DNA of 53,629 nucleotides, counting the filler, from Stramenopiles sp. TOSAG23-6 (lineage: Eukaryota): the NCBI GenBank assembly GCA_900128565.1. It is 2 parts of 2 records of this genome, joined end to end, with 100 filler letters (N's around TTAATTAATTAA, not from the genome) between each part and the next. Parts side by side here need not be neighbours in the genome. Positions count along the whole stretch, not along the records: positions 1 to 26,790 come from LT635984.1; positions 26,891 to 53,629 come from LT635985.1. One strand, written 5' to 3'. Position 1 is the stretch's first letter. The number at the start of each line of letters is the position of its first letter. Below are positions 1,718-53,629 of the stretch, one piece after another. The position numbers and the translations under genes are program-made. The notes beneath the pieces are model-generated. The model did no database searches and had not been told where the DNA came from. It saw only the letters and a program-made list of their open reading frames with translations.

Positions 1718-2949
1718 ATGGGAATATGTTCAGCAAAACAAACAGACCCTAACTTGAACTCTGAGTTTGCGGATCCTGGAGGATACAAGTTGAGAAAGAA
1801 ATATACTGTGTCTGAAAATCTAATTGGAAAAGGCCACTATGCGTTTGTCTACAAAGGAACTGAGAACGCTTCGGGAAAACCTGTTGCTATAAAAGTTATT
1901 CAGAAAGCAAAGAGTAGTATCGAAAGGTTATTTATTGAAATTGATATTATGAGAAAGCTCGGCTCTCATCCAAACCTCGTGGAGTTGTATGACGTATACG
2001 ATGATTCAGAAAGTAATGAATTAAGTTTGGTTATGGAGTATCTTGACGGTGGTGAGCTCTTTGAATACCTCGAGCAGAACGGAAACTACGCCGAAAAGGA
2101 TGCTGCGAAACTTGCGTATCATATTGCGCAAGGGCTTAAATATTTACACGACCGAAATATTGTTCACAGGGATTTGAAGCCAGAGAATTTGCTTCTAAAA
2201 GAAGATGCAGTTTACTCCGAAGTGAAACTTGCCGATTTTGGCCTCGCAAAGATTTTGAAAAAGGATACAAAGTTGCTCGATACCATATGTGGTACATGGG
2301 CATATGCAGCCCCTGAAGTAAAACAACAAGAGATAAGTGGAAAGTCTGGATACACAGCAAAAGTAGATAACTGGAGCTTTGGGGTAATAGTATTCGTTCT
2401 TATTAGTGTACGTTTTATTTTTTTTTTAATTTCGAATTTATTTTTCGTACGAAATTTTGTACCTAACGAATTTTTTTTTTAAATAATTTTTCACAATACG
2501 TGGGTATCATCCATTTGATCCATCTGGAGTAACGAGCGACGAAGATATGCAGGAAGCTATCAACGCCTGTAAATTTGATTATAATGATCCCATATGGATC
2601 CCAGTTTCAAAGGAAGGAAAAGATCTTATTTCAGCATGTGTGTTTTATTTTTTTTCAAATTCTATTTTTTTTTCATACGAAATTTTGTACCTAACATTTT
2701 TTTTTAATTTTTTTTGAAATATTTTTCCAAAATACATGTGTGAAACTTGATCCGAGTAGTAGACTGTCTACTGAAGAAATATTGGAACATCCTTGGTTTA
2801 AAAAAATGCTTGGCGATGAACTTACTCTTGATAAAGATCATCACACCAGAAGTCATTCTTTAGAAAAATTGAAGGAAACAAATCAAAAACGCAAACAATT
2901 CAAAGCTGATGTCAACACTGACATGGTTGGTGTAAATGTCAAATCCTAG
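1718..2949 (+). CDS. CaMK-family Ser/Thr kinase, 3 exons (1718-2407, 2502-2637, 2738-2949), about 345 aa
   Basis: GKGHYA, VAIK, HRDLKPEN, DFG and APE motifs. Splicing restores VLISGYHPFD and DLISACVKLDPSSR. MGIC N-terminus suggests acylation. Confidence 0.93.
2408..2501 (+). mobile_element. Introner-like intron, GT...GT
   Basis: agt|GTACGTTTT...GTACCTAAC...CACAATACGT|ggg; the exon ends in GT (2-bp duplication). Confidence 0.9.
2638..2737 (+). mobile_element. Introner-like intron, GT...AT
   Basis: cat|GTGTGTTTT...GTACCTAAC...CCAAAATACAT|gtg. Confidence 0.9.
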
Positions 2950-3021
2950 AGTTTTTACATTTTATCACCGAGATGTGATCAACATTGATTTTTACAATTA
3001 AAAACATTTTTGATGTATTTA

Positions 3022-3146
3022 GTAAATAGTCGTATAATATTTATTATTATAAAATGCATGTAATTATTACTTTTTCTTTATGTATGTAAATAGCCGTATA
3101 ATATTTATTATTATAAAATGCATGTAATTATTACTTTTTCTTTATG
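3022..3146. repeat. 64-bp-period tandem duplication between convergent genes
   Basis: gtaaatag(t/c)cgtataatatttattattataaaatgcatgtaattattactttttctttatgt occurs twice; the second copy contains the stop of the - strand gene. Confidence 0.9.
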
Positions 3147-4131
3147 TTTTTGTTTTCACATTTCTTTTTTTTGTTTTCACGATTTTTTGTATATTCATGT
3201 TTTGACAGAAAGTATTTTGCCGCCGTATCAATTTTCACGTCATTTTCTATTTTAGAATCTTTGAAATAATTCTCTTCTCCAGGTCGGAGGCCATGTTGTT
3301 TCAATAATTCAACGATATGTTGTATTGTCGTACTTTCAATACCTCCAGTATTTACATTCCTACATGTATTTTGGAAAAATATTTGAAAAAAAAAACGTTA
3401 GGTACAAAATGTCGTACGAAAAAAAAATAGATTTTGAAAAAAAAATAAAACATACATAGAGTACAAGAATATTCTTGAAACTCTTTTAAAGTAAAACGAG
3501 CATTATAGAACTTTCCATACTTTTCAGGGTTAGCTTTTCTAGAACCTTTTATTCCAATTACGAAAGTTTCAATGAATTTATCACATTTTCTTCCGACTTT
3601 GAAATGCTTGAGATTTTTCATTCGATCAAGGAAAGAATATATACCAGAATGTATGCTAAGAATCATCATATTAAGTTCGTGTTCCGATATAGACACTGGT
3701 ATTGTTTTTCGAGGTTGCTCGTCATCTTGGTCTTGAATGTCATTTTGGTCAAATTTAAAAAGTTCAAAAAGTGCTGCAAGTTTTTCGTTTATTGTGGCGT
3801 CACAGAAAACGTAATATCCTGCAAATAAAGCATGCGCATCAATCCCATGAATCTCATTTTTTATATTACCGTTGCTACATAAAAAAAGTGAAAATATATA
3901 TGTTTTAAATGCATCAGATGGTTTTGAAGTCGGTGGACGCCCTGGAATTTCTCTAAAAAGTAAATCTAAACCATTAAAGCCGTCAAGCTCTAGGATTAGA
4001 GAGCCGTGTAAATGTTTTTTCCAACGCATCTCTAGTATTTTAACTTCTTTTAAAGTGCAACAAGGAGGTGAAAATGACCAATCTTCTTCATCAAATACAT
4101 GAGGTCGTGGTATTGATTGTGCGCCGCCCAT
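3131..4131 (-). CDS. Putative myristoylated protein with degenerate EF-hand (calcineurin-B/recoverin-like), 2 exons, about 302 aa
   Basis: MGGAQS start; EKLAALFELF...ISEHELNMMI. Removing 3364-3455 gives an open frame to TAA at 3131. Confidence 0.65.
3364..3455 (-). mobile_element. Introner-like intron, GT...AT
   Basis: ctat|GTATGTTTT...GTACCTAAC...CCAAAATACAT|gtag. Confidence 0.9.
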
Positions 4132-4383
4132 TTTTTTTATGTCATGCAAAGTACACTGGCAAAAAGAATATTGAAAAAGTCATAGTTCTCTAAAAGTAGT
4201 TTTCATTTGTAGTAGTAGTACCTTATACTACTATAGTATAGCTAGTAGTATGATGTTGACTCAACAGTTACACTGATACAAAAGCAGGTTTGTTCCATAT
4301 ATTTGAAGTCAGCTCGACTTGTTCAGTACAAAGTGATCGTTCTGATATAAGCTCCAAGCTTGAAACGCAAAGTGCTTACTAAA

Positions 4384-6522: not shown

Positions 6523-6614
6523 GTATGTTTTATTCTTTTTCAAATTCGAATTTTTTTTCGTACGAAATTTTGTACCTAACGAATTTTTTTTCAAAATATT
6601 TTTCCACAATACAT
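6523..6614 (+). mobile_element. Introner-like intron, GT...AT, joining two different genes
   Basis: cat|GTATGTTTT...CACAATACAT|caa; left flank is RRP5, right flank is CPT2. Confidence 0.85.
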
Positions 6615-7425
6615 CAACTGCAGCATTTAAACATGGAAGGACTGAAACAATTCGATCTTTGACATGTAAAAGTCAATTCATGTGTAAAATATTTGATTAT
6701 CCTCCACGTTCTATTCATACAAAATATACAAAATATACAAAATCAAATGTTTCTGACAATTTTGAAAAAAATCTTCGAAATATTCAAAATGATATTGATA
6801 TTATAAAAACAATGGGATTAGCTACAAGGGCAGCATATGTCTCAAACGCTGCAGATCACCATAGTACAATTACACGCCAAGCCCTCATGGGTCAAGGGGC
6901 TGATCGTCATCTTTTTGCCTTACGACAACTTTCTTTACAGAAAAATAATAACAAAATTCAAAATTGTCCTGATATTTTTAAAAATGTTGCATGGAATAAA
7001 ATGAATACTATAATTCTTTCAACATCAACAATAAGTAGTGATTATTTACGTGGTGGAGGTTTTGGACCAGTCAATCCTGACTGTTTTGCTATTGGTTATG
7101 GTGTACGATCATATGGAAGTTTGGTTTCTATTATGAGTTTTGGTCGTGTATGTTTTATACGAATTTCTAATTTAAGTTTTTTTTTTTTTGGTTTCATACG
7201 AAATTTCGTACCTAACAAATTTGAGTTTTTTTTTTTGAAATATTTTTCACAATACGTGATTCGTCGGCTTTTGCTCGATCGTGTAAAAAAGCTGCCAATG
7301 ACATAATGGAATCTGTAGAGGCATTAAACATGGTAGAGAATGCAAAGGGCTTAAAGACTTTGAAAGAAAAGAAATTGTTTCGTAAAAGTTTAGTAAATGA
7401 AAGTATGAAAACTATGAATTTATAG
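6615..7425 (+). CDS. CPT2: Carnitine O-palmitoyltransferase 2-like, C-terminal fragment (exons 6615-7147, 7258-7425)
   Basis: STAAFKHGRTETIR, MGQGADRHLFAL, ILSTS, GGFGPVNPDCFAIGY. Confidence 0.85.
7148..7257 (+). mobile_element. Introner-like intron, GT...GT
   Basis: cgt|GTATGTTTT...CACAATACGT|gat; restores SFGRDSSAFARSC. Confidence 0.88.
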
Positions 7426-7690
7426 TTGAATAAGAATAAATGAAACCATGAAAACTATGAATGTATAGTTGAATAAGAATAAATACTTTATACATACCAA
7501 ATACAAATCTAATAATGTCATGTTCTGATTTTCTTTATATATTAGTACAAAAATTGTGACACTATAAATATACCCACGGTAGACATAGAATGTCACAGGA
7601 AACACTACAATTTTATATAGCCACAGTAGTCATAGAAGGTCACAGGAAACACTACAATTTTATATAGCACATTTACCAATTTCAGTTTAC

Positions 7691-7987
7691 TTATTGTTGC
7701 TGAGATAAACGACTTTGGACAAACTTACTTGAGTCTAAATATCGACCAGCACAATTCTCAATACATCTTTTCTCTGATGATCCCAACTTTGAACTTGTAC
7801 TGGAGACACACTTCTCCCAACATACTTCTGTAAGTTTTGCAATTACACTTTGGACCATGGCACGTTGCTGCTCTTGTTGAAGCTGATTTTTGTACTGTTC
7901 CTGCTCAGCGCGTACGCGTGATTCATCGCCATATGATCCGCTACTACCATAAGAAGAACTTCCGCCGTAGCTACCGTAACCACTCAT
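7691..7987 (-). CDS. TIM8: Mitochondrial small Tim chaperone (Tim8/Tim13 family)
   Basis: Twin CX3C: LTEVCWEKCV...EKRCIENCAGRYLD. Confidence 0.85.
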   Translation of the reverse strand: MSGYGSYGGSSSYGSSGSYGDESRVRAEQEQYKNQLQQEQQRAMVQSVIAKLTEVCWEKCVSSTSSKLGSSEKRCIENCAGRYLDSSKFVQSRLSQQQ

Positions 7988-8090
7988 TCTAGTATTATAA
8001 AGACTAAAGGTAATATTGTAGCCGCGCACGAGTCAGTAGTGTGGGTTCGTGTGATACTCTTTGGTGTTATGAAAAAAATGGTATTTATTT

Positions 8091-8103
8091 GTTACCGGGT
8101 ATC
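8091..8103. promoter_or_regulatory. Candidate promoter motif GTTACCGGGTATC
   Basis: Identical copy at 11597-11609 and a 12/13 reverse copy at 51560-51572, all upstream of start codons. Confidence 0.45.
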
Positions 8104-26790: not shown

Positions 26791-26890
26791 NNNNNNNNNN
26801 NNNNNNNNNNNNNNNNNNNNNNNNNNNNNNNNNNTTAATTAATTAANNNNNNNNNNNNNNNNNNNNNNNNNNNNNNNNNNNNNNNNNNNN
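26791..26890. other. Artificial contig-join linker
   Basis: N-run + TTAATTAATTAA (stops in all six frames) + N-run. Confidence 0.97.
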
Positions 26891-29241
26891 TGTTTTTTTT
26901 GTTTTTTTTGTTTTTTTTGTTTTTTTTGTTTTTTTTGTTTTTTTTGTTTTTGGTGGTAATTGTCTTGGATCAAAAAGAGTCGATACAGAAGAAGCACTAG
27001 AAATCCAGGCATCAATATATTTTCTTCGTACAACAACTTCCCATGATTCATTATCAAAAATACTCAGTAGGGGAGGAAGTTTGTATTTTTTCAAAAATTT
27101 CAATAATTTGTGAATAAATTTTTGAAATGTATTTGTCGATAACCCTAACCCTAGTATATTTGATTCATCGGATGGCTCATATATTTGTAAAACAATATCC
27201 TGCGTTTGACCCCAAATTTCACATTCCATACTTTTTCCTTCATATTGATTTTGTATCACTATTTTATCAACAATTCCAAAATTTATACGATCAAATACTT
27301 GCATTGGTGTATCATCGCCATCATACCAATGACCTGTAATAAATATCTCTTTTTTACTAATATTTAATGCAAGAAATTCAGCCATATTATAGCCATCCTT
27401 TTCATGCGGATGATAACATGTATTGTGAAAAAATATTTCTTTTGTCTAAAAGCATCATTGCGTTGTTTGTTAGGTACAAAATTTTCTAATACAAAAAAAT
27501 ACAAATTTCAAATTTCAATGTTTTTTAACCCTTAAAAAAATGAATGGGGAGTGAAATTTGAAAAGCGATTCCAACTGTAGGTGAAACGGGTAAAACGTTC
27601 GATGATTGGGAAATATTATTTCTGGATAATGACGATGTTGTGTAGTATACCACCAACTATATGTCATCAAAGGAACAGATAAAACAGAAACATCAACACG
27701 AAATCCTTCACATTCTTGTACGTATTTTGTTGCATTGTGTACAATATCTTCCATTGATAAAAAAANACTTTTAGGTGGTAAATTTTCAAGTATATTTCTC
27801 CCATATTCTGCAATATACTTTTGATTCGAAAAATCCCTCGATTTATAATTTATAATACACTGATACACAACGAGAGATACTGCAATAAGTAATGGACAAT
27901 AATAAATATTCCCAAATTTGAAAAGTTTACTTTGTTTTGATGATACCAAAGTGTAATCAAAAACATGTTGAGTGACATTAAAAAATCCAACACCTGAGAA
28001 ATAAAAAACAACAATATTACACTGTTGCCAAAATCTTTTGTATACACCTTGTAATAATGGATTTTCAGTATCCATATTTGCTAAATAACTCATAACAAAT
28101 AAGTACAGAAGAGTCGATATACAAAGTATAACTCCACTTTTCTTTTTTTTACATGTACAAAATGTACCAATGATAGCCAATACTATTGAAATTATTCCAC
28201 TTTCTTTTGAATGAAGAGTATAAAAATAGTCACGAAGTCGCAACCACACATATATATTATCATCTATATCTCCATTTGTATCAGTTAATTGAAATGTACC
28301 ATACTCCATGCGTAAAAAATGTGTCAAAAATCCTGAAAGAGTTGTTTGGTCACCCCAACCATCTTTTCGTTTTAAATTAGAAGCATACACTAAATATAGA
28401 TATGGGAGAAACCCACAGAAAGAACTTACTGTTAGCCATAGAACATGTATTGTAAAAAAAAAAAATCGAAATTTGTTAGGTACAAAATTTCGTACGAAAA
28501 AAAAAACAATTGAAATTCATAATGAAAACGTACAATACGTATCTTTGAACGAGTAGGGTTAGGGATTGAAAATAGACAGTACAAAACCCAAATTGCTATA
28601 GGTATAACAAGAAAAATTATGGTATGCTGATTTGATAATCCTAAACCACACAGCAGTGCACCAATGCAAGCATCACTCAGTAATGTAGTTGAGTTAATGT
28701 TCATTCGCTTTTTTTCATTTGTATTTTTTTGTTGTAGTAGAAAAAAACTAAAGTGACTTTCAAAAGAAAGAAACTGAAGTAAAATAAAAACAACAAACAA
28801 ATTATTCAAAGCAAAAACTTCACCCTGAACAGCATATAACCAAATTGTAGGAGAAAATGCGAATATACCAGCAGCATATATACCACTTGCAATACAAAAT
28901 AAAAATGTTTTCTTTTTCAAATGGACCAAAGCAGGATCAGAAACGCTACTAAAAGTATAAAACATTGAAATGAAAAGTCCTCCGGCAGCAAGAGAGTCAC
29001 ACAAAGCCGAAAACATATTTATTCTAAAAGCAGGACTTCCACCAAGCAAAGGTAAGCGATAAAACATAGCCGCAAGTATCGTCCAAAGCGGATAACCAGG
29101 AGGATGTGCTGACCCGAGATTACACGCTGCTGTCATCAACTCTCCACTATCACCACCAGGAACACTTGAATATATAGTATTCAAATAGATTTTGAAAACT
29201 ATTGCTATAAAACATAGTGCAATACTAAGCACTTTAATCAT
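26891..29241 (-). CDS. TMEM260: TMEM260/DUF2723 protein O-mannosyltransferase-like, 3 exons (29241-28534, 28444-27601, 27417-gap)
   Basis: GGDSGEL, AHPPGYPL, GEVFALNN, NQHT, WGDQ...HFLRMEYGTF, RFWQQ. Confidence 0.92.
27418..27600 (-). mobile_element. Introner-like intron, GA...AT
   Basis: catc|GAACGTTTT...TTTTGTACCTAAC...CACAATACAT|gttat; gives FPNHRYHP in frame. Confidence 0.75.
28445..28533 (-). mobile_element. Introner-like intron, GT...AT
   Basis: att|GTACGTTTT...TACAATACAT|gtt; in frame. Confidence 0.88.
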
Positions 29242-31053: not shown

Positions 31054-33145
31054 TTAATTAAAAGAGTCAGTGCGTAAATGATAACTAGTTGCACGAGCAA
31101 ACATTGGAAAATTTTCAAAATCACAACTTTTGCTTGATTCAACAGATTCTCTCCGACTATTACCCACAGAAATAGACTGATGACTCTTTCCATAATTTGT
31201 ATTATTATTACTATGTACAGCAGTATATTCATTATTAATACCCTCAATATTCGTATCGACAGCATTCGCATCATTTGCTTGGATTCTTTCCAAGGCTTTT
31301 TCTGAAAGTTCCGTCCAATCACTACGCAACATTATAACTGTACAAAGAATAGACGATAGTGTCAACCCAACAGCAACTCCACACCAGAGACCACCAATGC
31401 CAAGATCAAACACTTTCCAAAAAGCTAATAAAATACCTAAAGGAATCCCAAGGATCCAATACACACAAAACATGTATTGTGAAAAATAGTTTTTTTTAGT
31501 TAAAATATCGTTAGGTACGGCATGTACTGAGAAAATAAAATGTAGGTAAAAATTAATTTTGAAACGTACATTACTTTTGCAGCTATTGTTTGTTTTCCAA
31601 TGGCTCTTAACTGACCTTGTGCAACACCATTTACTGTATCCACTATTTGATACAATGCTAACACAATCAACCATTTCTCGGTATCTCTAATATATTTCTC
31701 TGTAGGATGAGAGAGAAAAAGAAGTGGAATATTGTGTCTAAGTAGGAACATTCCTAAACAAATTAAGAGACCCATCACAGAAGCAGCAAATAATGATGCT
31801 TTTGAAGCAGATTCTGCGTTTCTTATTTTGCCTTCACCCAAATCATTTCCAATGACAATAGAACAACCAGTGCTCAACGGTAGAGTAAATGCCACGTATG
31901 TAAATGCTGTACTATTCATTAAAGCAGCATTCACTGCGAGAGCAGTGGTTGGATCAGGTAACATTGCAGCTAAAAGATTCAATAACTCAAAAGCCCATGT
32001 ATTGTGAAAAAATATTTTTTTTTTAGGTTTTAAAAAAATTCGTTAGGTACAAAATTTTGTACGAAACAAAATGTAGGTAAACAATTCAATTTTGAAAACA
32101 TACACCATTCTAAACCTATACTCAAAATTGCAGGACAGCCATATTGGAGTATTTGATATAAACCTGACAAATTCATAATTTCCACCCATATAGATCGTCG
32201 TGGTATACATGGTTTATGAAGATCATAATAAGTTATATACAATATAGAAAGAATGACACGTAATATAGATGTAATTGACTGAACAACTGCACACCACTCA
32301 AATCCAAGGTTACTCCCCCAATTCCCTAATATTGAATCCAACGAACCATTCAATAATACAAGTGTGAGTCCAATATTAAAAACTAAAGAAAACATCGCTA
32401 TCCACATAAAAGGTTTTACTACACTACGAGCTGACATTGTCTTTCTAATGAGTTCATATAATATAGTGAACGGTACACCAACTAAAAGACAACGGCAATA
32501 TTTTCCAGCTAAATGGCTTATATGAGCAGGTACGTGAACAAATAAAAGTACATTACCTGAGAAATATCCAAATATAGTTGTTGGAATCATAAGAAGGGAC
32601 GCTACCAATGAAGCCCTCAAAAAATATACACCAAGCAAGTCAAAGCGATTTGCCCCTGCTGCTTGAGTACTTAGTGTATCCAGGGCAGCTATTAGACCAA
32701 GTAGTAATGATACGCCAAACACATTATTAAACATTGTACCTAGAGAAGCAGCTGCAACAAAATCTTTGCCTTGATATTGACCCACCATGGCTACACCTGC
32801 AACATTTGGAAGAAACTCAAACACAGATGTCATCATTATTGGGAAGTACAAAACTGCTATACGTTTTAGTTGCACTTTCCAACGTGTATCACCCTCATCA
32901 GCACCACCAATTTCATTATAATGTAAAGTATGTTGAATGCTAGAATCGTCTGATAAACTAGGTAATCTATGCGAATGTCGAATGCTAGAAACACCAGCTA
33001 AAGTGGGTGGTCTTGGTATTAAGGGTGAGTCTGGAATTCTTGACCTATGTAATTGGTTTGATCCCCTTCGATTTCTAGAAGAGTGAGGACTTAACTGCTT
33101 CATCATTGGACCTAATACTTCCCCTGATACAGTCCAAGACGCCAT
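31054..33145 (-). CDS. MATE family efflux transporter, 3 exons (33145-32104, 31996-31570, 31471-31054), about 628 aa
   Basis: ALDTLSTQAAGA, LEWWAFE after splicing, IGNDLGEG, QGQLRAIGKQ, GIGGLWCG. Confidence 0.93.
31472..31569 (-). mobile_element. Introner-like intron, GT...AT
   Basis: aat|GTACGTTT...GTACCTAAC...CACAATACAT|gtt. Confidence 0.88.
31997..32103 (-). mobile_element. Introner-like intron, GT...AT
   Basis: tggt|GTATGTTTT...CACAATACAT|gggct; restores LEWWAFE. Confidence 0.92.
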
Positions 33146-37151: not shown

Positions 37152-37188
37152 AAAAACAATTAGTTGACAATTTTTATATTTTTTTTAT

Positions 37189-40100
37189 TTATTTATTTAG
37201 ACACAAAGCTGCTTGTTTCCGTATACATGGATTGGCATTTCTTAATACACACTTAGTTAGTATATTTTTGTCACCGGCATGTTTTAATATTGATTGTGCA
37301 GTTGAAATCACTTTGTTGGATGGATCATTCAAAGACCTTAAAACTATAGCAAGTACAATTTTCTTTTTTAATACTGGGATAGTAGGGTTAGGGCTACTTC
37401 TTGACATTTTGTGTAATTTGTATAAAACTTGTAAAGAAGTACATCGTATATCTACGTTATCATCAAGTGTTAAACGTCTTAATAATGTCACAATTCGAGA
37501 TAGTAATGTATTGCAAGTTTTATCGATTTCTAAAGTACTTAATACAGAAATAAACGAAACTCGAAGTTTTGAAGACTTTGACTTTGCTGCTATATCTATA
37601 ACCCATGAAACACCTTTGGACCCCATTTGCATTAGTGCGGATGCAATAATACGCGATGGAACTTTTGATGATACTAAAGTAGTTTGAATTCTAGTGGTAG
37701 AATCAATTTTATATTCTTGTTCTAGTAATATTCTCTCACTGCTCATCTTGTCATCAATAGTATTGTCAAGTAACCAATCCTCTTTAGGAAATGATTTATA
37801 GATACAATGAAGCAAATGTGGAATAGCAATTTGATGTCCCCATAAACCTAACACAGCAACTGTAGACGTTCTCACTAACCAAAAATTATCAGCAAGGGAT
37901 TCTAACAGACATAAAACAATTTTTTCAGAAAGAAGAGTATTTGTTTTTACTTGTTTCTCCGTCGTGTTTTTATTATTACCATTTATGTTACATTGATCAT
38001 ATAAGTCAACTGTTTGTCTAATAACTGGAGAACCAAATGCAGTCACCGTTGCATTTCGGATGGATTGCTCCTTATCACAAAGAGTGACAAAGAATGCTTG
38101 GATCACTTGAATGAGTTTAGGTAAAGGCAGTTGTATAGTACTTAATGTAGCTATTGATGCAATACAAACATCTTTATCTAAATCTTGAAGAGAGAATAAT
38201 AGTGCATCAATAATTTTACAATCCATTGAACTGTCACAAAGCCATCCAATCGATGATATTATTTGACGTTTTGGATTTTTACTGGTTTTCGTAGCATTAC
38301 TATAATCTCTTTTGATTGCATCATCATCAATATCATCATCAATGTACATTCTCTCAATAGGTATAATATTTGTGTAATCAAAACTTTGTTTTTCAAATAT
38401 TCTCTGAAAAGAATTTAATATTTCTTGTGGATCTAAACGGAGAGTATAATGATAAAGTTCTGAATGTTGTACGTTCCAGTACGTTTTTAAAGGACCAAAG
38501 TTAAAATCTTGCCCAAACGAATTTCTAGTCAATTCATATCTAAATTCAGAAATTGAAAAAACTTCAATCTTTTGTAGTTCTTGTATTTTTTGTATTTCTC
38601 CACGGCCTTTTACATAAATACCATTTGGAAGAATATTATTATCTTTATATAAATTGCTAATTGTAGATGATGTATATGATTTAGTGTCATCTACGCCATT
38701 TATACTTTTGCGAGTTTTAGGATATTTAGAACAAAGTTTAAGTTCTACTATTTGCTTTTGTTTTTCGATTCCATAATTTTTGTTTTTTTGCTTCTTTTGT
38801 TTTCTTTCATAATCATTATCCACGAAAATGTTTATATAAGATCGTCGTTTTGTATGAAAGTCTATACCTAAAGCCCAACAACAAATGCGTTTCACTAAAG
38901 AGGTTGTTTCAGTATTACACATATGATATACTAAAATATTTACCCCAGAGCATGGGAGAGTACGCAAAGCCCATCCAGCTGCAATCTTACATTTATGGCG
39001 TATACTACTTTTAGGGTTCTCTAATAAAAAACGTTCTAAGATCCCCCCAACTCTAATTACAATTTGTGCATACTGTTTATCAAAATCTGTGGCAGTCATA
39101 GATTTTCTCGTTTCTGTAGTGGAAATTGTGCAAAATACGTATCCTAGAGATATTATCATAGATAATTTTGTCTTTGAACAAATTACAATATCCATCTGAG
39201 AACAAAGTAAAGGTATAATACATAACTGTTGAATTTGAGGCAAATTGCAGAGGTGTGTTAATATCGCCTTATCAAGTTCTAATGTGCCATCTTTTATGAC
39301 CAACAAACATTCTTGTATTCCTAGAGTTCCTAGAGCAATTAATACATTTAAAATTTCACTTCTTTGTCTTACTAATAATTTTTTTTCGTGACTTATCTGG
39401 GGCAGAGGGTTTTTATATTTTTCAGCTGAATTTTGTTTAACATTTGTGGAATTTGTCGAACTTTGCTTAATTTCCTCCAAAACAATGTGAAAACATCGCT
39501 TTATTTCAGGTAGTAATTTGATACATTTTTCGCCTAACCTTGTGATGAACTTGAACAAAAGTGTATTAAATTCTATACTATTTTTTTTATACTCTAGAAG
39601 AAGTTTTGATTTACAAAGTGGCAAAAACTCACGATTAAAAAAGTCATTATTTTGCCTATCATTTACTAATTGCTCGACGTATTGACCATTTGTCAGTTCA
39701 AAGCATAATTCAGATAATGCGTATATGCAATCAAAACCTTTTACCATTGTACTGTTTGCTATTTGATCTAGTAATGACCGAACTCGTTTTAATGTATTTT
39801 GGAAAAATATTTAAAAAAAAAATCGTTAGGTACAAAATTTCGTACGAAAATAAATTCGATTTTTTGTTTAAAAAAAAAATAAAACATACATGCCACACAG
39901 TATGGTAACTTATGTTTTGCATCTTTATTTATATCTTTCATTGATTCATCTTTTGAAGCATTCAAAGTGACATACTTTAAATAAGGTGAACTAGAAACTA
40001 ATGTTGATGGTGCAGTATAGTCATTGAGAACGTCTTTCATTAATGGTGCAGTAGAATCACCGAGAACGTCTTTAATTTTAAACGGAAACTCTTCAAGAGC

Positions 40101-41104: not shown

Positions 41105-42713
41105 ATGCTTGGACCCGTTGTTCAACCTTCTTTAGTTGCGTCAATGTCACCAAAATATGAAGGAGGACAAATATCTTTAGTCAAGTCTGATCGAGTACAA
41201 CCAGTAGTAAATGACTCAACAATAGGTGTAAATACTCCAAGTAAAAAACCAGTAGTAAATGACTCAACAATAGGTGTAAATACTCCAAGTAAAAAGTTGG
41301 GTATTCATACAATACCGTTAGAAACCAACAGCGCATTTCATTCGATTAAACCAGGAATTTCAGTATTTGTTAGAGGCAAGAATATGCCAACACCAATTCG
41401 TAAAAAACGTAGAAAAGCAGAGCGACTTTTACACAGACCTAGACCAACTACTACTAGTCATCAAAATAATAGTTTACACAGACCAAGACCAACTACTAGT
41501 CATCCTACCCCGGCCGTTTATTCTAACTCTAGTAGTCATTTTACAAGACCAAAGACCATACATGTCTCACATCGATCTTTACAAAACAAACAATACATAG
41601 GTGGAAAAAATCTTACATATCAAAATAATACAAGAATGATTAATAGAGACAAACAGTTTATAGTCACGATTCAAGGGGATTCTATATTTAACTTTAATCC
41701 TACAACAACGAGTAGAGAGAATACTAGTACTACTGATGTCTTTACAACACGAAATTATATAGATCAAAAATTATCAATGAGAAATGAAGGTGGATTATCA
41801 ATGAGAAATGAAGGTGGATTATCAATGAGAAATGTAGGTGGATTATCAATGAGAAATGAAGGTGGATTATCAATTAGAAATGAAGGTGGATTAAATCGAC
41901 CTCGACGTAGTATTGATCGTAAAAGTATACAAAAAAAAAGAAAAAATCAAAACAAAATGACAAAAAATAAAAGTAATACACAAAATACACAAAATACACA
42001 AAAAAAAGATAAAATTCCTGGTTGGAAAAAAGTTAGAGAATGTAGTAAACGTTCAACAAGAAGCAATCCTCTGGGAAGTAAGGCAAGCAGACTTTTACAA
42101 TCATTATATGGTAAAAAAACAAAATGTAGTTCGAAATCTTTTTCAAAAGAATCTTTCAATCATTATTATAAAAATCATGAAAAGACAAAAATAAATTTTC
42201 AAAAATGGGATTTTCCAAAATACACTACTCTTAACGTAGAATTGAAAGAAGCACTTCATCGACGAAATCATGTGCAAGTTATAAAACTTCGACGCCAAAT
42301 TGCGGAACTTTATTCTGGAGGCCTTCGAAAACCGACACAAAAAAGAATTGCAAAACCTAAAAAAGATTCAAAACAATTACAGAAAATAAGTTCAGTACGT
42401 TTTTTTTTTCTTTTTTTTTTTGTTTCTCAATTATTATTATTATTATTTTATAGTACATTTTGTGCCTCTAACAAATGTGAAAAAAAAAAAAAAAAAATAT
42501 ATATTGTTTTCAAAATATCATTGTTTACGACTACGTTTGTGCTCTGTGCAAGATCGTGTCACTTGTGAAAAATGGTGGTCCAATGAATCGAGACCAAGAC
42601 ATATTAGTAAAAAGAATGATAAACACCGTGAAATGAATACATTTGGTACTTCAAATCATACAATGGATTCATCATATAAAGCTTTTAAAATATGTATATC
42701 TGACTTCAAATGA
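41105..42713 (+). CDS. Hypothetical basic low-complexity protein, 2 exons (41105-42394, 42522-42713)
   Basis: Long ORF with LSMRNEGG repeats; the frame continues after a diverged intron. Confidence 0.6.
42395..42521 (+). mobile_element. Diverged introner-like intron, GT...AT
   Basis: tca|GTACGTTTT...CCTCTAAC...CAAAATATCAT|tgt. Confidence 0.7.
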
Positions 42714-42848: not shown

Positions 42849-44592
42849 TTACTCTTCAACAACGTGTCCTTTATACTTCATTGTTGTTTCATCAAAGCCT
42901 ATAGTTGGAAACTGACGACAAAAATCAGCAACTTCGAGCTGTAAAGATTTCAGTTTACTATCATATTTTCCCTCTGAAAGAGAGTCTTTAAATGCTTTTA
43001 AAGTTTTTTTTCCCGTACTGGCAATCACGTCATCTTGTATTTCTTTCGCAAGACAAACCCCTTTATCAACAAAATGTGCAATCATTGTAAAATCTTTCTT
43101 CACTAAACCACGTGATGTCATCGTTGGACTTCCTAAACGTAATCCAGATGGTTTTAATGCACTTTTATCTGTAGGAACAGTATTCTTATTTATTTTGAAA
43201 AAATATTTCAATAAAAAATTTTGAAAATTTGTTAGGTACAAAATTTACTATGAAAAAAAATAAAAAATCGATTTTTTTTTTTTCGGTAAAAAAAAAAAAA
43301 TAAAACATACATTTGTTGATATATTACAACGTTCCAATACAAATTCACAGCGTGCTCCATCAACTCCGCGAGAGGAGAGAACATCAAGAAGTAATAAATG
43401 ATTATCAGTTCCACCCGAAACCATCGAATATCCAACATCTTCAAAAGTATGTATTTTGGAAAAATATTTCAAAAAAAAAAAAACTAAAATTTGTTAGGTA
43501 CGAAATTTCGTACGAAAAAAAATCGAAATTGAAAAAAAAAAAGAAACATACATCAGCCATAGTTTTTGAATTGGAAATAACTTCTTCCATATATCCTTTA
43601 AATTCAGGTGAAGCAGCTTGTTTCAAGGCCGTCGCGAGTGCAGTGATAGTATGATTATGAGGTCCTCCTTGACATCCAGGAAAAACAGAAAAATTGATCG
43701 GATCTTCCAAATTATAAAAGATTTCTTTTCCTTTTTTTGTAGTCGATCTCAAACCTTTACGATAAAATATCATGGCACCACGAGGACCACGCAATGTCTT
43801 GTGTGTCGTTGTAGTGACAATATCAGCATGATCAAAAGGACTTGGTGTAACACCACCAGCAACCAATCCGCTTATGTGAGCCATGTCAGCTAAAAGATAT
43901 GCACCAACACTATCAGCAATCTCTCTCATACGAGGATAATCATAATTTCGAGAATACGCACTTGCACCAGCAATAAGCAATTTTGGACGGATTCTCTCTG
44001 CCAAAGCAGCACAAGAGTCGTAATCAATTCTTCCTGTTTTCACATCCAACTGATATCCGAAACTTTCAAAGTATATTGAAGTTGCAGATATTTTCTTCGT
44101 TGGAGTTTGATACCCATGGGATAAATGTCCACCATGAGGCAAATCAAGACCAAGTATGCGATCATGAGGCTTTAAAATTGCAGTATATACGTGAAAGTTT
44201 GCCGGAGAACCAGAAAGTGCCTGTACATTGACACCCCAGTCGTTTGGATCAAGTCTGAATGCTTCTAGTGCACGTTTTTGACACAATAACTCGGATTGAT
44301 CGATATACTCATTCCCTCCATAGTAGCGTGCATTTGGATACCCTTCTGAGTATTTATTTGACATTACCGAACCAAGAGCATCATATACAGATTGAGACGT
44401 CAAGTTTTCCGAAGCAATTAGACAGATACTGTTCCTCTGTCTATTTTTTTCTTTTTCAATAATGTCGCATACCTCAGGATCAGTCTCAGAAAGCGGAGCA
44501 TTCATAACACTAACCCAGTGTGGAACTGTAGAAAATGCCCGACTGCGAGCAACTACGGATATTTGGCGACGCCATACCGATATTAAAGACAT
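42849..44592 (-). CDS. SHMT: Serine hydroxymethyltransferase, probably mitochondrial, 3 exons (44592-43552, 43448-43311, 43187-42849), about 505 aa
   Basis: [41 protein letters not shown] after splicing, GLRLGSP; Arg/Ser-rich presequence. Confidence 0.97.
43188..43310 (-). mobile_element. Introner-like intron, GT...AT
   Basis: aat|GTATGTTTT...CAAAATAAAT|aag; restores the SHMT NKN motif. Confidence 0.92.
43449..43551 (-). mobile_element. Introner-like intron, GT...AT
   Basis: gat|GTATGTTT...CCAAAATACAT|act. Confidence 0.92.
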
Positions 44593-44848: not shown

Positions 44849-47800
44849 TTAATTACGACGCATTTGCTCCCTAACCAAGGCAAGCATTTTTTCTTCTGTA
44901 TTGACTTCTAAATTTCCAATATATTTTTTTGATTTTTGTTTTACTCTTTTTATGTTACTAAAGATATCATGTACCTTTTTAACAAACAATTTTGTACTTT
45001 CTGCAAATGCAAGTACATCTCTTGAAAAGTTTAGAACATGTACGGCTGGTAGTTCATTTTGTATAGCTAATTGATACTTTAGTTCAACTGCATCTAAATA
45101 TTTTTGACTTTTACATACTTTCACTGCAGCTTGTGTGACAAAATGTTTTGCTGAGGCATTGAGGAGCATATATTTATCATTATTCGTTCGAAAAGTTTTT
45201 TCTTCAATATTTTGCCATACACGATTGATCTCTTCAAATATATTTCCCTCTAAATTTGGTTGTGTTATTTTCATTTTTTCTTTATTTTCATTAGAGTTAG
45301 GGTTCTCATTATTTTCATGTAGAGAAATATTCTTTTCAAATAAATCTCTTGGTACATAATTCCATCCACCTATTTTAGCAAATGTATACCCTGTTTCATG
45401 AATATTTTCCCTGATTAAAGACAGAATTTCACTAGATTCTTTCAAATATTTCACGCGATGATCAAGTCTTATTCCATATAATGATTTCATTTTTACGAAA
45501 AATGTGTTTACTTTTTCCAAATAAATACTTTTAATATGTACAATATAGCGTAGTCTATAAAAAAAGCGACGCCAAGCCGTTTGAATTATAATGGAAGAAT
45601 GATTTCTTTTTTCATGTAATTCTTTCAACCTTCTCTCTTCGGGGGGTACGATGATTTGTTGATACAGTGATCTAGTAATAAAACCTCTAATATGTGTTTG
45701 TGTTTTATGGATCCAATATTTTATCAATAATTCAGATTTCAATAATTCATCACCTATTCCTAACTGTTGTGCCAATTGTCGTTTTGATATGAAATCATTT
45801 ATAGCTGACTTATCCGTTCCATGTGTTGGAAAATATATGTCAAATTTGATTTTTTTGTTAGGTATGAAATTTAGTATGAAAAACACTATAGGTGAAAAAT
45901 TTATAATGAAAACGTACATGTTTTGTTCGATCTTTCATCTTTTTTTTCCATCGCAAAACTAAAATACTTTGTGCTGCTATAAATATTTGGAACGAATTTG
46001 AAATTAATCGCATACGACTCCAATTAAGTATACAATTTAAACTACACCATCTAAGCCATTGATCAATTGAATGTAACGTTGTAGCTTTGCCAAATAATTT
46101 TGTTGACCCTAAAGACCAAAAAATGTCGTTTTTGCCTAAATGAGAAACTTTATTTGATGGAAGTGCATGAGCACATACCGCACTGACACCTTTACGAGGC
46201 ATTGAGTCTTTTGCTATGGGTGGATCCATAAGGGCATGTATACTTTTTGGTACAATTACATCATTCCATAGACTAGAATAGCTCATTCTAAATGGAAAAT
46301 TTCGTTTTTTAATTTCACATACTTTAATCATTCCAGTATACAACAATTGTCTGTACACTGTTGAATGGTTAAAACTACACAAACCATCAATTGGGCGATA
46401 GTGTATTTTATTTGGATTAATACATCGGATGAAATGTGGATTTGTTGTACGTAATGTAGAAGACAATGTCGATATGGTTTTTAATGTTTTTCCTGCGAGA
46501 GTATTTTTGTCATCATTATATATTTCATTAAATATAGTTACAAGCAAAGGTATTTTTGAGGTCTTCATTATCGATTTTATTTGAGTCAGATTTGTATCAT
46601 TATTTTGACATAAGAAGTTGGTTGCATTATACTCAATTTTACCAACGTAATGAGTAATACAAAATGTATTGCCATACTTGGCATGTGTTGAAAACATTGC
46701 GGATGCTTTTTGTATCGTAGAGTTTGTTGTATGTACATTTCCGATTTTACCAGATTTTGTAGAATTTGTATACGAATTTTTCATTTCCTGTACAAAAGCT
46801 TTACCCATGTTGTTTTTACCCATATTATCATGAAAATTATATATACTCTTTTCTTTGATACGTGGTAAAATACCTTGGAATTTTGTACAATTTTTGGATA
46901 ATAAATTTTGACAAGGTAAAGTATCCAAATCTTCTAATGTATCCATAGGCAATTCAATACATTCCTGTTGAAATACACTTACTTCAGATTGAAACACGAA
47001 ATCATCCAATATACCTTGAAGTTTTTCATTTGCATAGTTTATACATAATTCATAGAGAGTATTTTTTGGTAAAGATTGAAACCCAAATAAATCTAAAACA
47101 CCAATAAAAGAATCACTTTCTTCATTTGTTTGTAATGCAGTATTACAAACATTTTTGACTAACCAGGAGTAAATACGCTTATATATCTCTTTTGATATTG
47201 AATTACGACGGCATTCGGCTGTATCAGTAGACTGTATTGGCATTTTAGCGAATGATTTACCTGGAAGTACAATCGTATCATTTAGTAGCAATGTTGTATA
47301 CACGTCCCTACTTAGTCCTAATAAATCAGCAACTTCATTAGCTATATTTTGGTTTACAATGGCACAACTACTCATACTATTATCAGTATCATTACAATCA
47401 TAAAATTGTATATTTTGGTTTTTTAAAATACTTGTCAGAAGTTTCCATAAAGATATGCACGTTGATGCTGAAACACCAAGTAGTTCAAGTGAAGCCTGTA
47501 TTGTGAAAAAGTATTATTTCTCTTCTACACAAAATATTAGATATGAAATATATTGTTTTTTTCAGAAAAAAAAAAAAAAAAATTCAATTTCAAAATTTAA
47601 AAAAAAAAGAAACATACCCGAACGCCAGACATTTTTGGATCTTTTCTAGAAAGTGGATTATTCATACGATTTATATCATATTCTTCACCAACACCATGAC
47701 CAATGAATGTGGAACCACCATGAGTAAGTTGTGAATAATCTTCACAAGTACCTAAGTGAAATTCATCACCTAAAGTAAAATCATCTTTGTTTTGTGCTCT

Positions 47801-48927
47801 TAAAAAATGATAAAAAATATGAAAACATCGTTCACCCAGCGCATAGTTGCATGTATTTTGGAAAAATATTTCAAAAAATTGTTAGGTACAAAATTTCGTA
47901 TGAAAAAAATTTCGATTTTTTTGTAAAAAAAAAAAATAGATAAAAAATTGAAAAAAAAAAACTAAAATGTACATATTCGTGTCACATCTAAAAAATAATG
48001 TTGGACAAATGCACCAACAATACAACCTTTTTTAAATAAAAGTTTCGTGAAAAGGCCAACACACGAAGCATTATCATTTTTGTTTGTTTTGGCATGTCCA
48101 AATGCTTCAAGGAGTGGCGAAATTCCACAAATTTTCTCTATAATTTTTGTTTGAGAATTTCTAACAGATCTGTCAAGACTTTTATTTGAAATTTTTACCA
48201 AATGATGAATTAAAAGATCATTGATAGTTGTCTTTCCAGAACCAGATTCCCCAGAGAGTACACAACTCTGATTATTCACGTTGCCATTTGTTCCGTATAA
48301 ATTTCTATATATCGTTTTTACTTTTTTATAAAAGTAGTTGATTCGAAGTTTTGAATGTTTTGGGTCATGATGAAGTGTTCGAGTATCCAACAAACTCATT
48401 TGAGGATTTAAACAAATAAGAATGTCACCAACACTTGTATAGGGTTGGTAATCTTCGACGAAGCGACGACCTAAAAGTCGCAGAAGACTAACGTTGCCAA
48501 AGCCATTTACTGTAGAAATATCATCAGGAATCATTTCAATGGGCAAGTCGTGAGAGTCATCATACGGACAAACCTCATCTAATGAAAATATAAAAGTATC
48601 ATTATGTTTTTGTTTTGATATTTGTATTGTACATGTATTATCATTATTGTTAGCAGATAACAAATATCCAACAGCAAACAACTCTGTACACGTTTTCACC
48701 TCAGGACCTTTGATGCAGGGACCTGGGCATTTGCCACGCTCTTGATACTCTTTAAGTTTAAGTTTCTCCTCATTATTATTTCCATTTTGTGGAAATCCAA
48801 TTGTTTTACTACTGAAATTTATACGATCTAGAAACTTAGTTCGATATGGATCGTCTCTGACAACATCTGCAGCAGAATACCAAGAACCTTTCTTGTCAAT
48901 ACCAGTGGGATAATATACTTTTCTCAT
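44849..48927 (-). CDS. Divergent myosin (motor + IQ), 4 exons (48927-47973, 47850-47618, 47495-45918, 45820-44849), about 1245 aa
   Basis: GESGSGKT, LEAFGHAKT, ERCFHIFY, LCINYANEKLQ, PHFIRCINPN, IQTAWRR. Confidence 0.92.
45821..45917 (-). mobile_element. Introner-like intron, GT...AT
   Basis: cat|GTACGTTTT...TACCTAAC...CCAACACAT|gga. Confidence 0.87.
47496..47617 (-). mobile_element. Introner-like intron, canonical GT...AG
   Basis: cgg|GTATGTTT...CATATCTAAT...CACAATACAG|gct. Confidence 0.88.
47851..47972 (-). mobile_element. Introner-like intron, GT...AT
   Basis: atat|GTACATTTT...CCAAAATACAT|gca; restores RICNYALGERCFHIFY. Confidence 0.9.
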
Positions 48928-49185
48928 TGGCTTACAATATTTTTATACCTATTTGTAATCTCGAAATAAAAAGGATACTGCTAAGACTTCACTTTGTGTG
49001 TGTATGTAAATAAGGTGTAACGTATACTTTGGAAACTAGTATACGTTAAAATTAAATCAAATACACGAAAAATGCTAAAAAATCAAAAAAAGAAAGAAAG
49101 AGGACATTTTTGTTTTATTTGATCTTTTACAAATCCCCTCAATCAACAACACTCATATCATCTTTGTTGTATTAAATTTTTACTT

Positions 49186-51387: not shown

Positions 51388-51844
51388 GAAGGATCGTGGT
51401 TGTAGTGGTTACGCATGGAGAAGTCATGTTTAAGGATTTGGTCATTGTGATACAATTAAATTACTGTAGCTGTTTTGAGTTTTCTGAAGTTCGAACAAGA
51501 CAGAGAGCAAGGAGGAGGTGCGCATCATGTTTTTTAGTACACCGCGCGACCATTCATTCGATACCCGGTACCTTATAGTAAACTGACTTCACAATTATTC
51601 TTGTCATACTTAAATGATTAAATCCTCTTACTTTTCGTTTATTCAAGACAAGAAGACAAAATATTTTATAATCGCTTATAATAGGAGGAATAAATATGAC
51701 TTCGCTTTGGTACGACTTTTTGTACTTTTAGTACCTTAAGAAAATTTTAATCCAGTTGTAAGCCCTAATAGTAGTCTATTGCAATTCTACTATTCTTTGT
51801 ATACTCTTTGTATAATTTTTGTACTGATAACTTGATAACTTTGA

Positions 51845-52801
51845 TCATTCATGTTTTTCATTTTCTTTCCCATTGTGTTTTTTCTTATAAAAATAATACA
51901 TTCCACCTAAAATCATTAAGGTCATTATACCTAATGGAATGAGTGATGATTCATGTGGTACAATCAGTGAATATGGATCAGGACTATTTGTAAGTGTTAT
52001 GTATTTTGGAAAAATATTTCAAAAAAAAATTTTGAAAAATTGTTAGGTACAAATTTTACTATGAAAAAAAAAAAAAAAAAATTCAATTTTTTTTGTAAAA
52101 AAAAAAAAAAAAAAAATTCAATTTTTTTTTTAAAAAAAAAAAAAAAAAAAACGTACATAATTTCAGTAAATATTGGATCATCTAACATCTGTTGTTCCCA
52201 GATCAATTTTGTTGCTACCAATGGTTCTGCATAACACCAATTTACACCTCGCCAAAATTTACCTCCAAGAGCCCAATATTCTTGAACACCAATTGTTAAA
52301 TTATATCCAAGTATTTTGAAAAAATATTTAAAAAAGAAAAACCCTAAAATTTGTTAGGTACAACATTTTTATAAAAAAAATTTCGATTTTTTTGTTTAAA
52401 AAAAAAAATAAAACATACAATTAAATAAGGACTTTTGATATATCTATTTAATTCACAATGAATTAAAGTATCATCGGTTGAAGTTGATCTTTTTCCAAAA
52501 GCAAAACTATGGTCTTTGGAAAAATATTTCAAAAAAAATTCTAAAAAAATTTGTTAGGTACAAAATTTCGTATGAAAATAAATTCGATTTTTTTTTTACC
52601 GAAAAAAAAAAAAATAAAACATACATAACCAAATAAATTTAATCTTTCAGGATGACTTCGGATTCCACCAGTATAAGCAGGAAGATCTATTGGAACATCA
52701 GTATTACATATATTGTGAAACAGTTTGGAACGTTACATTGAATGATGAATTTCATTTTTTTTTTTTTTTTTTTTTTTTTTGGAAAAAAAATTTGTTTTAA
52801 A

Positions 52802-52832
<31 letters not shown>

Positions 52833-53629
52833 GAAATTTATGATGAAAACATACTCTTAACTTTACAACGCATCACAATTGAATTTCTAAAATAAAATGA
52901 TGTCCTAGAAGCATCACAGCATTGTAAACACCAACCAATATCTAAACCAGCTGGATTCTTTGTACTTAATGATGTAAATGAAAGAATATTAAAAAAATTT
53001 CAAATATTTTGTTAGGTACAAAATTTTCTACCAAAAAAAAAAAAAAATCAAAATTCATGATGAAAAAAACATAAACGTTGATGTCCAATGATAACCTTTG
53101 CCATCAAAGGGATTCCCGCCATTTTCATCTGCACGTGTACAATCAAGTTGACCGGGTAACCCATCATTATCAGTACTAGATAAATCATACATGTATTTTG
53201 GAAAAATATTTGAAAAAAAAATTTTGAAAATTTGTTAGGTACAAAATTACGTACGAAAAAAAATTTAGACTAAAAATTGAAAAAAAAATAAATCATACAT
53301 GGCACAAAAAGCTGGTTCCGGATCGTTTTGGTTGATATTACGCCTGCGTGGTCTAAATGAATACGCATATACTTTGTGAAAATATTTTAACTTTTTTTTT
53401 GTTTAGTATCTTAGGTACAAAATTTCATACCAAAAAAAAATATAGTTTGTGAAAATATTTTAATTTTTTTTTAGTATCTTAGGTACAAAATTTCGTACCA
53501 AAAAAAAAATTCATAATAAAAATGTACATCACACTGTGGATTATATTGACAAGCTAATTCACACCTCCGAGCACATGTATTTTGGAAAAATATTTCAAAA
53601 TTTACCAAAAAAAAAAAAATTGTTAGGTA
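51845..53629 (-). CDS. 3' part of a Cys-rich single-pass membrane protein, at least 8 short exons
   Basis: Exons 53574-53528, 53366-53299, 53190-53075, 52971-52855, 52707-52625, 52508-52419, 52308-52157 and 51998-51845 chain with matching phases. C-terminal TM segment; CELACQYNPQCDAYSF is PAN/apple-like. Confidence 0.8.
51999..52156 (-). mobile_element. Introner-like intron, GT...AT
   Basis: ttat|GTACGTTTT...CCAAAATACAT|aac. Confidence 0.88.
52309..52418 (-). mobile_element. Introner-like intron, GT...TT
   Basis: att|GTATGTTTT...CAAAATACTT|gga; TT duplicated. Confidence 0.85.
52509..52624 (-). mobile_element. Introner-like intron, GT...AT
   Basis: tat|GTATGTTTT...CCAAAGACCAT|agt. Confidence 0.87.
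52708..52854 (-). mobile_element. Diverged introner-like intron, GT...AT
   Basis: aaga|GTATGTTTT...TGTAAC...CACAATATAT|gta. Confidence 0.78.
52972..53074 (-). mobile_element. Introner-like intron, TT...AT (or GT...AC if shifted 2 nt)
   Basis: acgt|TTATGTTTT...GTACCTAAC...CATTTACAT|cat. Confidence 0.75.
53191..53298 (-). mobile_element. Introner-like intron, GT...AT
   Basis: ccat|GTATGATTT...CCAAAATACAT|gtatg. Confidence 0.87.
53367..53527 (-). mobile_element. Introner-like intron, GT...AT, with duplicated 3' module
   Basis: gat|GTACATTTT...(GTACCTAAG...TTCACAAA) x2...TATAT|gcg. Confidence 0.8.
53575..53629 (-). mobile_element. Introner-like intron, 3' half, ends AT
   Basis: TACCTAAC...CCAAAATACAT|gtg; the 5' end is outside the window. 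Confidence 0.8.

Follow-up and report, generated by a model that had tools for sequence, protein, structure and literature searches.

We describe a family of short repeated insertions, intron-like in their 5' part and ending in AT far more often than in AG, in 53,629 nt of genomic DNA (the whole stretch analysed, hereafter the window) from Stramenopiles sp. TOSAG23-6 (GenBank assembly GCA_900128565.1), in which sequence from two records, LT635984.1 and LT635985.1, stands end to end. The reading that we favour, with a probability of roughly 0.68, is that an introner resembling a miniature inverted-repeat transposable element (MITE) is removed by the major spliceosome, and that the exons are ligated after a duplicated target dinucleotide under the guidance of a conserved 3' tail and not of an AG. 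Few signals in eukaryotic gene expression are as constant as the 3' AG; judged from the DNA, this introner family is probably spliced without a 3' G.

Results

A repeat family lying sense in open reading frames

Copies were collected with nhmmer from a seed of 12 copies, together with scans for the donor and the tail. The family comprises 24 copies in 53.6 kb, 23 of them complete and one truncated by the window end, with lengths of 89-183 nt. The N runs at 26791-26890 have copies before and after them, and every one of the 24 is sense to the open reading frame (ORF) that it interrupts, 5 on the plus strand and 19 on the minus strand, an arrangement with a probability of ~1e-7 under random orientation by our own arithmetic. 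Of the 24 copies, 20 end in AT, 2 in GT, 1 in TT and 1 in AG, so that the AG of a major-class 3' end is found in 1/24 copies only. An earlier note on this DNA had listed 24 sense insertions of 89-183 nt in coding sequence, on both sides of the join, with the same distribution of ends; we recovered the same set, and our recount of the ends is identical.

The 5' part of the element is that of a major-class intron. GT opens 21 of the 23 complete copies within the consensus GTAYGT (GTAYGTTT), T tracts are present, and the branch-like motif TACCTAA[CG] occurs in 20 of the 22 copies examined, being missing at 47617 and 52854; the copy at 42395 carries TGCCTCTAAC in its place. The U2-type donor and branch motif, previously described as nearly universal, are therefore confirmed for most copies, the exceptions being copies 6 and 21, which do not start with GT, and the copies that lack the motif. 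When the window was scanned, the tail motif gave 18 matches vs 0.81 expected, and TACCTAAC gave 22 vs 0.98. Mean pairwise identity over 16 copies is 73.5% (56-92%) and is unevenly distributed, reaching 92% in the donor, 91% in the core that contains the branch site and 87% in the tail, against 70% and 74% in the two spacers. The conserved 3' module consists of a T-run, a C and CAMAATAC.

Immediately 5' of CTAAC, most copies carry a near-perfect palindrome, GTACGAAATTT(C/T)GTAC, for example at 7196-7216 (+). The central palindrome GTACGAAATTTCGTAC was considered as a selected hairpin and rejected, as copy 14, with ATAC in both halves, shows no compensation between them; given that its variants are non-compensatory, the palindrome may be a feature of the DNA level.

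The copies are listed below, with exon bases in lower case, intron bases in capitals and a slash at each boundary.

Copy 1, 2408..2501, + strand: 94 nt, gt/GTACGT..ATACGT/g, phase 0, kinase gene; junction LIS/GYHPF.
Copy 2, 2638..2737, + strand: 100 nt, at/GTGTGT..ATACAT/g, phase 1, kinase gene; 8-nt direct repeat CATGTGTG.
Copy 3, 3364..3455, - strand: 92 nt, at/GTATGT..ATACAT/g, phase 1, unnamed ORF; joins 241 + 76 open codons.
Copy 4, 6523..6614, + strand: 92 nt, GTATGT..ATACAT; frame not restored; RRP5 upstream, carnitine acyltransferase downstream.
Copy 5, 7148..7257, + strand: 110 nt, gt/GTATGT..ATACGT/g, phase 0, carnitine acyltransferase gene.
Copy 6, 27418..27600, - strand: 183 nt, GAACGT..ATACAT/g, phase 1, downstream part of the TMEM260-like gene; least certain boundaries.
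Copy 7, 28445..28533, - strand: 89 nt, tt/GTACGT..ATACAT/g, phase 0, TMEM260-like gene; 277 + 226 open codons.
Copy 8, 31472..31569, - strand: 98 nt, at/GTACGT..ATACAT/g, phase 2, MATE gene; no in-frame GT/GC-AG alternative.
Copy 9, 31997..32103, - strand: 107 nt, gt/GTATGT..ATACAT/g, phase 1, MATE gene (LEW/WAFE); shift to AT-AC gives TGA.
Copy 10, 39792..39889, - strand: 98 nt, at/GTATGT..ATACAT/t, phase 1, HEAT-repeat gene; 299 + 866 open codons.
Copy 11, 42395..42521, + strand: 127 nt, divergent, ca/GTACGT..TATCAT/t, phase 0, unnamed ORF; 435 + 63 open codons.
Copy 12, 43188..43310, - strand: 123 nt, at/GTATGT..ATAAAT/a, phase 0, SHMT gene (NISTN/KNTVP).
Copy 13, 43449..43551, - strand: 103 nt, at/GTATGT..ATACAT/a, phase 0, SHMT gene.
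Copy 14, 45821..45917, - strand: 97 nt, at/GTACGT..ACACAT/g, phase 0, myosin gene, after the motor domain.
Copy 15, 47496..47617, - strand: 122 nt, gg/GTATGT..ATACAG/g, phase 0, myosin gene; sole AG-ending copy.
Copy 16, 47851..47972, - strand: 122 nt, at/GTACAT..ATACAT/g, phase 1, myosin gene; no in-frame GT/GC-AG alternative.
Copy 17, 51999..52156, - strand: 158 nt, at/GTACGT..ATACAT/a, phase 2, cysteine-rich ORF.
Copy 18, 52309..52418, - strand: 110 nt, tt/GTATGT..ATACTT/g, phase 0, cysteine-rich gene.
Copy 19, 52509..52624, - strand: 116 nt, at/GTATGT..GACCAT/a, phase 0, cysteine-rich gene.
Copy 20, 52708..52854, - strand: 147 nt, ga/GTATGT..ATATAT/g, phase 1, without TACCTAAC, cysteine-rich gene.
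Copy 21, 52972..53074, - strand: 103 nt, irregular donor TTATGT..TTACAT/c, phase 1, cysteine-rich gene.
Copy 22, 53191..53298, - strand: 108 nt, at/GTATGA..ATACAT/g, phase 2; 14-nt direct repeat CATGTATGATTTAT.
Copy 23, 53367..53527, - strand: 161 nt, at/GTACAT..GTATAT/g, phase 0; core and tail duplicated internally.
Copy 24, 53575..53629, - strand: 3' part only, truncated by the window end, ..ATACAT/g.

The cysteine-rich gene (51999-53629, -) holds 8 copies in 1.6 kb, with intervening exons of 47-152 nt that are singly too short for Pfam.

The terminal dinucleotide and the target site

In 16 of the 23 complete copies the exon dinucleotide before the GT is the same as the last two bases of the intron, where ~1.4 such matches would be expected, and the match holds both for the two GT ends (flank GT) and for the TT end (flank TT). 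The terminal dinucleotide thus resembles a target-site duplication, 2 bp long, left by a MITE-like element with the ends GTAYGT...ATAC. A terminal dinucleotide of this origin means that the cut falls two bases past the element; it explains why ends are AT, GT or TT, and it makes most boundaries shift-ambiguous, since GT-AT, TG-CA and AT-AC readings yield the same mRNA. The restored sites have A (12) or G (6) at -2, T at -1 (18/22) and G at +1 (15/22).

The ambiguity is broken by four copies (7, 9, 15 and 21) in which the duplication is imperfect. An AT-AC reading for the whole family was rejected, because the MATE copy at 32103-31997 would then read GAA TGA, a stop, and because starts elsewhere would be GT or TT; under GT..AT the same copy keeps the invariant EWWAFE. 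This stop and the GTAYGT consensus together fix the reading as GT..NT.

Boundary repeats longer than 2 nt were seen in copy 22 (14 nt, CATGTATGATTTAT) and copy 2 (8 nt, CATGTGTG), and in both the departure from the donor consensus equals the start of the downstream exon. Such repeats could come from a target preference for sequence that resembles the end of the element, or from conversion.

Searches for relatives revealed no empty site and no autonomous partner. The pattern of branch site plus tail had 0 matches in metagenome contigs and 0 in genome contigs, while the core pattern had 0 in viral contigs and 1 in a Bacteroidales metagenome-assembled genome, which is at chance level by our own arithmetic. 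A search for a related locus with SHMT exon 3 returned only distant SHMTs (40-61% identity) and no family member.

A duplication of this kind also invites an explanation at the level of DNA, in which a transposase-like activity would remove the element with one copy of the duplication, as happens with the internal eliminated sequences of ciliates, and some of the DNA that was sequenced would still contain the element. Loss of precisely this unit restores the genes, a 2-bp direct repeat bounds 16/23 copies, and splicing at a non-AG end would then be unneeded. However, excision of DNA carries no orientation requirement, yet 24/24 copies are sense. It would also leave without a role the conservation of the donor and branch blocks above the spacers and the presence of the same branch motif in an ordinary intron of the window. 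The standard code gives long ORFs, and stramenopiles are not known to eliminate DNA. We consider this explanation improbable.

Exact removal restores reading frames and colinearity with homologues

Removal from the first G to the base two past ATAC (GT..NT) joins long ORFs in frame for 22 of the 23 complete copies. The sole frame failure is copy 4 (6523-6614). S1 domains of RRP5 reach up to this copy (flanks 4351-7306), and directly after it, in a different phase, comes a carnitine acyltransferase, represented by its C-terminal third (421-557 of 574 profile positions). With RRP5 upstream and carnitine acyltransferase downstream, copy 4 is probably a chimeric assembly join inside the repeat and no failure of the removal rule. 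It may be that repeats of this family cause mis-joins elsewhere in such assemblies.

Nine junctions produced by exact removal are colinear with homologues and free of gaps, two each in SHMT, MATE and the CaMK-like kinase and three in myosin. Both SHMT junctions, including NISTN/KNTVP, are colinear to the residue with three other SHMT sequences: P0002 (85% identity), P0003 and P0122, the last of which lies on an intron-free contig of 956 nt. The best other matches of this SHMT are a EukProt protein at 85% identity, followed by taxonomically mixed eukaryotes at 63-76%. The MATE junctions, LEW/WAFE and AAKVM/FCVYW, show no gap against 14 homologues, and the kinase junctions, LIS/GYHPF and DLISA/CVKLDP, fit CaMK-type kinases when compared with CaMK structures. 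Within the Pfam profile of myosin, position 181 ends exon 1 and position 187 is residue 5 of exon 2 (181, then 183-187 across copy 16), so that this junction is exactly colinear once the split codon is counted. Exon 3 begins at profile position 243; exons 2 and 3 follow in profile order, and exon 2 is ~13 residues longer than the profile.

Colinearity at these nine junctions requires exact removal of the copies, beginning at GT and ending with the T that lies two bases beyond ATAC. The earlier note had claimed that exact removal restores frame and conserved motifs in SHMT, MATE, the kinase, myosin and TMEM260. This stands for the first four; for the TMEM260-like gene the frame alone (277 and 226 open codons) and no motif was confirmed, and at copy 4 the frame is not restored.

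Canonical AG alternatives

Alternatives were screened as in-frame, stop-free pairs of a GT or GC within 45 nt of the donor and an AG at most 60 nt upstream or 45 nt downstream of the intron end. The screen covered 21 copies; copy 11 was tested separately, and the chimeric and truncated copies were left out. Within these limits, no GT/GC-AG pair exists for 2 of the 21 copies (MATE 31569-31472 and myosin 47972-47851). With the donor kept, an AG is usable in 9 of the 20 non-AG copies, at the price of altering the protein by -1 to -11 or +8 residues. The claim that nearby AGs fail in SHMT and MATE was upheld, as the SHMT alternative loses the Lys of NKNT, which is kept by all homologues shown, and the MATE alternative loses WAFE. 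AGs that would break the frame lie 10-40 nt after the branch motif in 6 of 20 copies. In the sole AG-ending copy (copy 15) the AG takes the exact position of AT elsewhere, and three AGs upstream would have to be passed over.

It could nonetheless be argued that splicing is canonical, at nearby GT-AG pairs with small insertions or deletions, or that it is absent and the copies sit in dead alleles. In-frame canonical alternatives exist in 19 of the 21 screened copies, and a public SHMT model, P0121 (42849-44703, -; exons 100% identical), uses GT-AG and stays in frame. Against this, copies 8 and 16 have no alternative within the limits of the screen, and elsewhere the alternatives delete residues or spacing that every homologue keeps. 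P0121 itself, which forces GT-AG, reads MADVYVGYS and NISTN-NTVP and so loses conserved residues at both SHMT introner sites; because it also omits parts of the uninterrupted ORF, the model is not evidence-based. Dead alleles are difficult to reconcile with exons that are all open in at least 10 host genes, SHMT and myosin among them, with the copy at the chimeric join lying between two more. We give little credence to either form of this explanation.

The conserved tail and the ordinary introns

Three cues had been proposed earlier to define an acceptor that lacks AG, namely the conserved tail, the distance from the branch point and pairing between the intron ends, and of these the tail remains as a candidate. 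A fixed branch-to-end distance was rejected since the branch motif lies anywhere from 31 to 52 nt from the intron end. End pairing was rejected as well. The RNAalifold consensus amounts to -0.24 kcal/mol, which is essentially no structure; an explicit end helix has 68.5% of its cells paired with 0 compensatory changes, 500/500 shuffles being as high, and GTACGT donors occur without a compensating change in the tail. The conserved 3' tail is, as read from the copies, the most likely candidate for the acceptor signal, and the better preservation of donor, core and tail relative to the spacers fits selection on the 3' module.

Two ordinary introns were predicted from ORF continuity beside the family.

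13301..13349, - strand: ordinary intron of 49 nt, GTTTAT..TACCTAAC..AATAG, with TACCTAAC 15 nt from the AG; assigned on ORF continuity only.
21690..21780, + strand: ordinary intron of 91 nt, GTACGT..ATCTTAG; joins 420 + 298 open codons.

These two GT-AG introns indicate that AG acceptors are also in use; most introns observed in the window belong to the family. As a claim about the whole organism, the earlier proposal of a non-canonical spliceosomal system goes further than the present sequence supports; at least two ordinary GT-AG introns are predicted here. The occurrence of TACCTAAC in the family and in an ordinary intron suggests that the organism in general uses it as its branch consensus, in place of the usual TACTAAC.

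Branch-site position also bears on whether the copies might be minor-class (U12-type) introns of a rare GT-AT subtype, removed by a spliceosome that tolerates many 3' dinucleotides. Minor introns have an RTATCCTT donor and the branch site TCCTTAAC about 10-20 nt from the 3' end, and GTATGTTTT is two positions off the GTATCCTTT consensus. GT-AT, with the same terminal dinucleotides as our family, is listed as a rare subtype in a survey that also places hundreds of minor introns in Blastocystis, a stramenopile (10.1101/2022.09.24.509304). In contrast to those rare single loci, the copies described here form a repeat family with another donor, branch consensus and branch-to-end distance: the donor is GTAYGT(TT), not RTATCC, and 31-52 nt from the end is too far for a minor-class branch site. 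We regard a minor-class origin, too, as having little chance.

It is very improbable that the terminal T stands for a G through an error of sequencing or assembly. The window does resemble a single-cell assembly, in that it contains N runs and a probable chimera, but the last base is not G at 23 independent loci, the terminal dinucleotide varies together with the 5' flank, and one copy does read AG.

Discussion

A small non-autonomous introner of MITE type, of which the 24 insertions would be copies, could account for these observations as follows. The element would insert at (A or G)T followed by G and duplicate two bases, bringing with it a U2-type donor GTAYGT at its first base, an internal branch site TACCTAAC, T tracts and the 3' module. 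In the pre-mRNA, donor and branch site would presumably be used as in any major-class intron, and the exons would be ligated two bases past the terminal ATAC, after the duplicated dinucleotide, whichever bases it comprises. Splicing out the element with one copy of the duplication would recreate the uninterrupted coding sequence. If ligation follows any duplicated dinucleotide, the acceptor is not specified by AG; the tail just upstream of the cut would then be the likely acceptor signal, read by some factor. Removal at the RNA level, the major spliceosome as the agent and the tail as the signal are what we infer from the sequence of the copies. That in this marine stramenopile lineage the spliceosome itself, or an added factor, ligates exons equally readily at a 3' U and at a 3' G, with 24 of the ~26 introns in the window representing one element whose acceptor is its 3' module, we would put at even odds.

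Several points weigh against removal by the major spliceosome at such an end. No second-step geometry is known that would accommodate a 3' U beside the 5' G. The conservation of the tail may reflect the needs of transposition, or an easier alignment outside T and A runs. Most junctions leave the cut sites unfixed, so that GT..NT depends on one decisive MATE copy and the donor consensus, and two copies have irregular donors, GAACGT in copy 6 (27600) and TTATGT in copy 21 (53074). As for a MITE-like element, the terminal inverted repeat is short and imperfect (GTAT.TTT and AAA.ATAC, ~7 of 8-9 bases). One copy (6523-6614) lies on a probable assembly chimera. In protein searches, no transcript-derived protein identical to the window exons was found for SHMT or for MATE exon 2.

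The spliced unit of the introners of Micromonas pusilla and Aureococcus anophagefferens, according to what Huff et al. 2016 reportedly found, consists of the element plus one copy of the duplication, as proposed here. The introners of these two species carry direct repeats, inverted repeats and canonical splicing motifs, as described in PMC7789003. Our family resembles these in having many near-identical short intron-forming elements, and it has candidate counterparts of their terminal inverted repeats and target-site direct repeats. However, the Micromonas and Aureococcus introners are GT-AG, whereas here AT is the predicted end of 20 of 24 copies, the duplication is 2 bp long and the inverted repeat is very short.

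The introners of Amoebophrya are likewise MITE-like, with direct repeats of 3-5 nt at the boundary that make boundaries ambiguous and with non-GT-AG ends; in PMC7789003, no dinucleotides are said to be preferred, and inverted repeats of 8-20 nt pair the intron ends. Repeated MITE-like intronic elements, boundary direct repeats and non-GT-AG ends are thus common to both. Unlike those of Amoebophrya, the copies described here have a canonical donor and branch site, one dominant type of end and no covariation of paired ends. We accordingly rejected an assignment to the hairpin-type introns of euglenids and Amoebophrya, in which the ends pair. Most introns of Fritillaria borealis do not follow GT/AG, and diverged U2AF paralogues recognise the non-AG 3' ends (PMC13326754). 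Recognition of a new acceptor by a protein therefore has a precedent in Fritillaria, although this is an animal whose introns have lost the 5' GT and are non-canonical at either end, whereas here only the last base departs.

A GT-AT family may well have escaped notice. Large introner surveys took 3' sites to be AG and AC and relied on annotated introns (PMC12130899), and a family of this kind in a genome annotated with GT-AG introns would be missed by them. Our literature search found no paper that connects introners with the marine stramenopile (MAST) lineages. A term search of MAST genome papers and a 2026 preprint found no mention of non-canonical splicing; their supplements may hold intron statistics.

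If the proposed splicing is real, the family would be a natural system for AG-independent choice of the second-step splice site with a textbook donor and branch site, and it would show what can replace the terminal G. As only the last base is off-rule while donor and branch site are canonical, the problem of second-step recognition would be isolated here, in contrast to Fritillaria and Amoebophrya, in which everything has drifted. A transposon able to make exact introns without an AG in its target duplication would also have a wider range of introner sites. Gene finders restricted to GT-AG would mis-model such genes, as the conserved residues lost from the public SHMT model illustrate, and it may be necessary to re-examine the gene counts, completeness scores and pseudogene claims made for single-cell genomes of this sort.

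Other features of the window

The window is AT-rich (28-40% GC in 2-kb bins) and gene-dense, with long ORFs under the standard code and N runs that include two of 44 N at 26791-26890. The ORF products are ordinary eukaryotic proteins, among them RRP5, CTP synthase, an ABC-F ATPase and an amino-acid transporter, as well as SHMT, myosin, a MATE transporter, a CaMK-like kinase, a TMEM260-like protein, an HMG-box protein and a fragment of a carnitine acyltransferase. No ribosomal, small nuclear or transfer RNA was found within the window. Public runs that contain parts of this sequence comprise two small DNA runs together with seawater metagenomes and poly(A) metatranscriptomes, the shares in the RNA runs being small and no proof of splicing, and the organism is presumably a marine stramenopile of the MAST kind. 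A telomere-like double repeat, TAGGGTTAGGG, occurs six times (11633, 19688, 27143, 28554, 37383 and 49824), compared with none in 100 shuffles, and by coordinates at least four of the six sites (27143, 28554, 37383 and 49824) lie inside listed ORFs.

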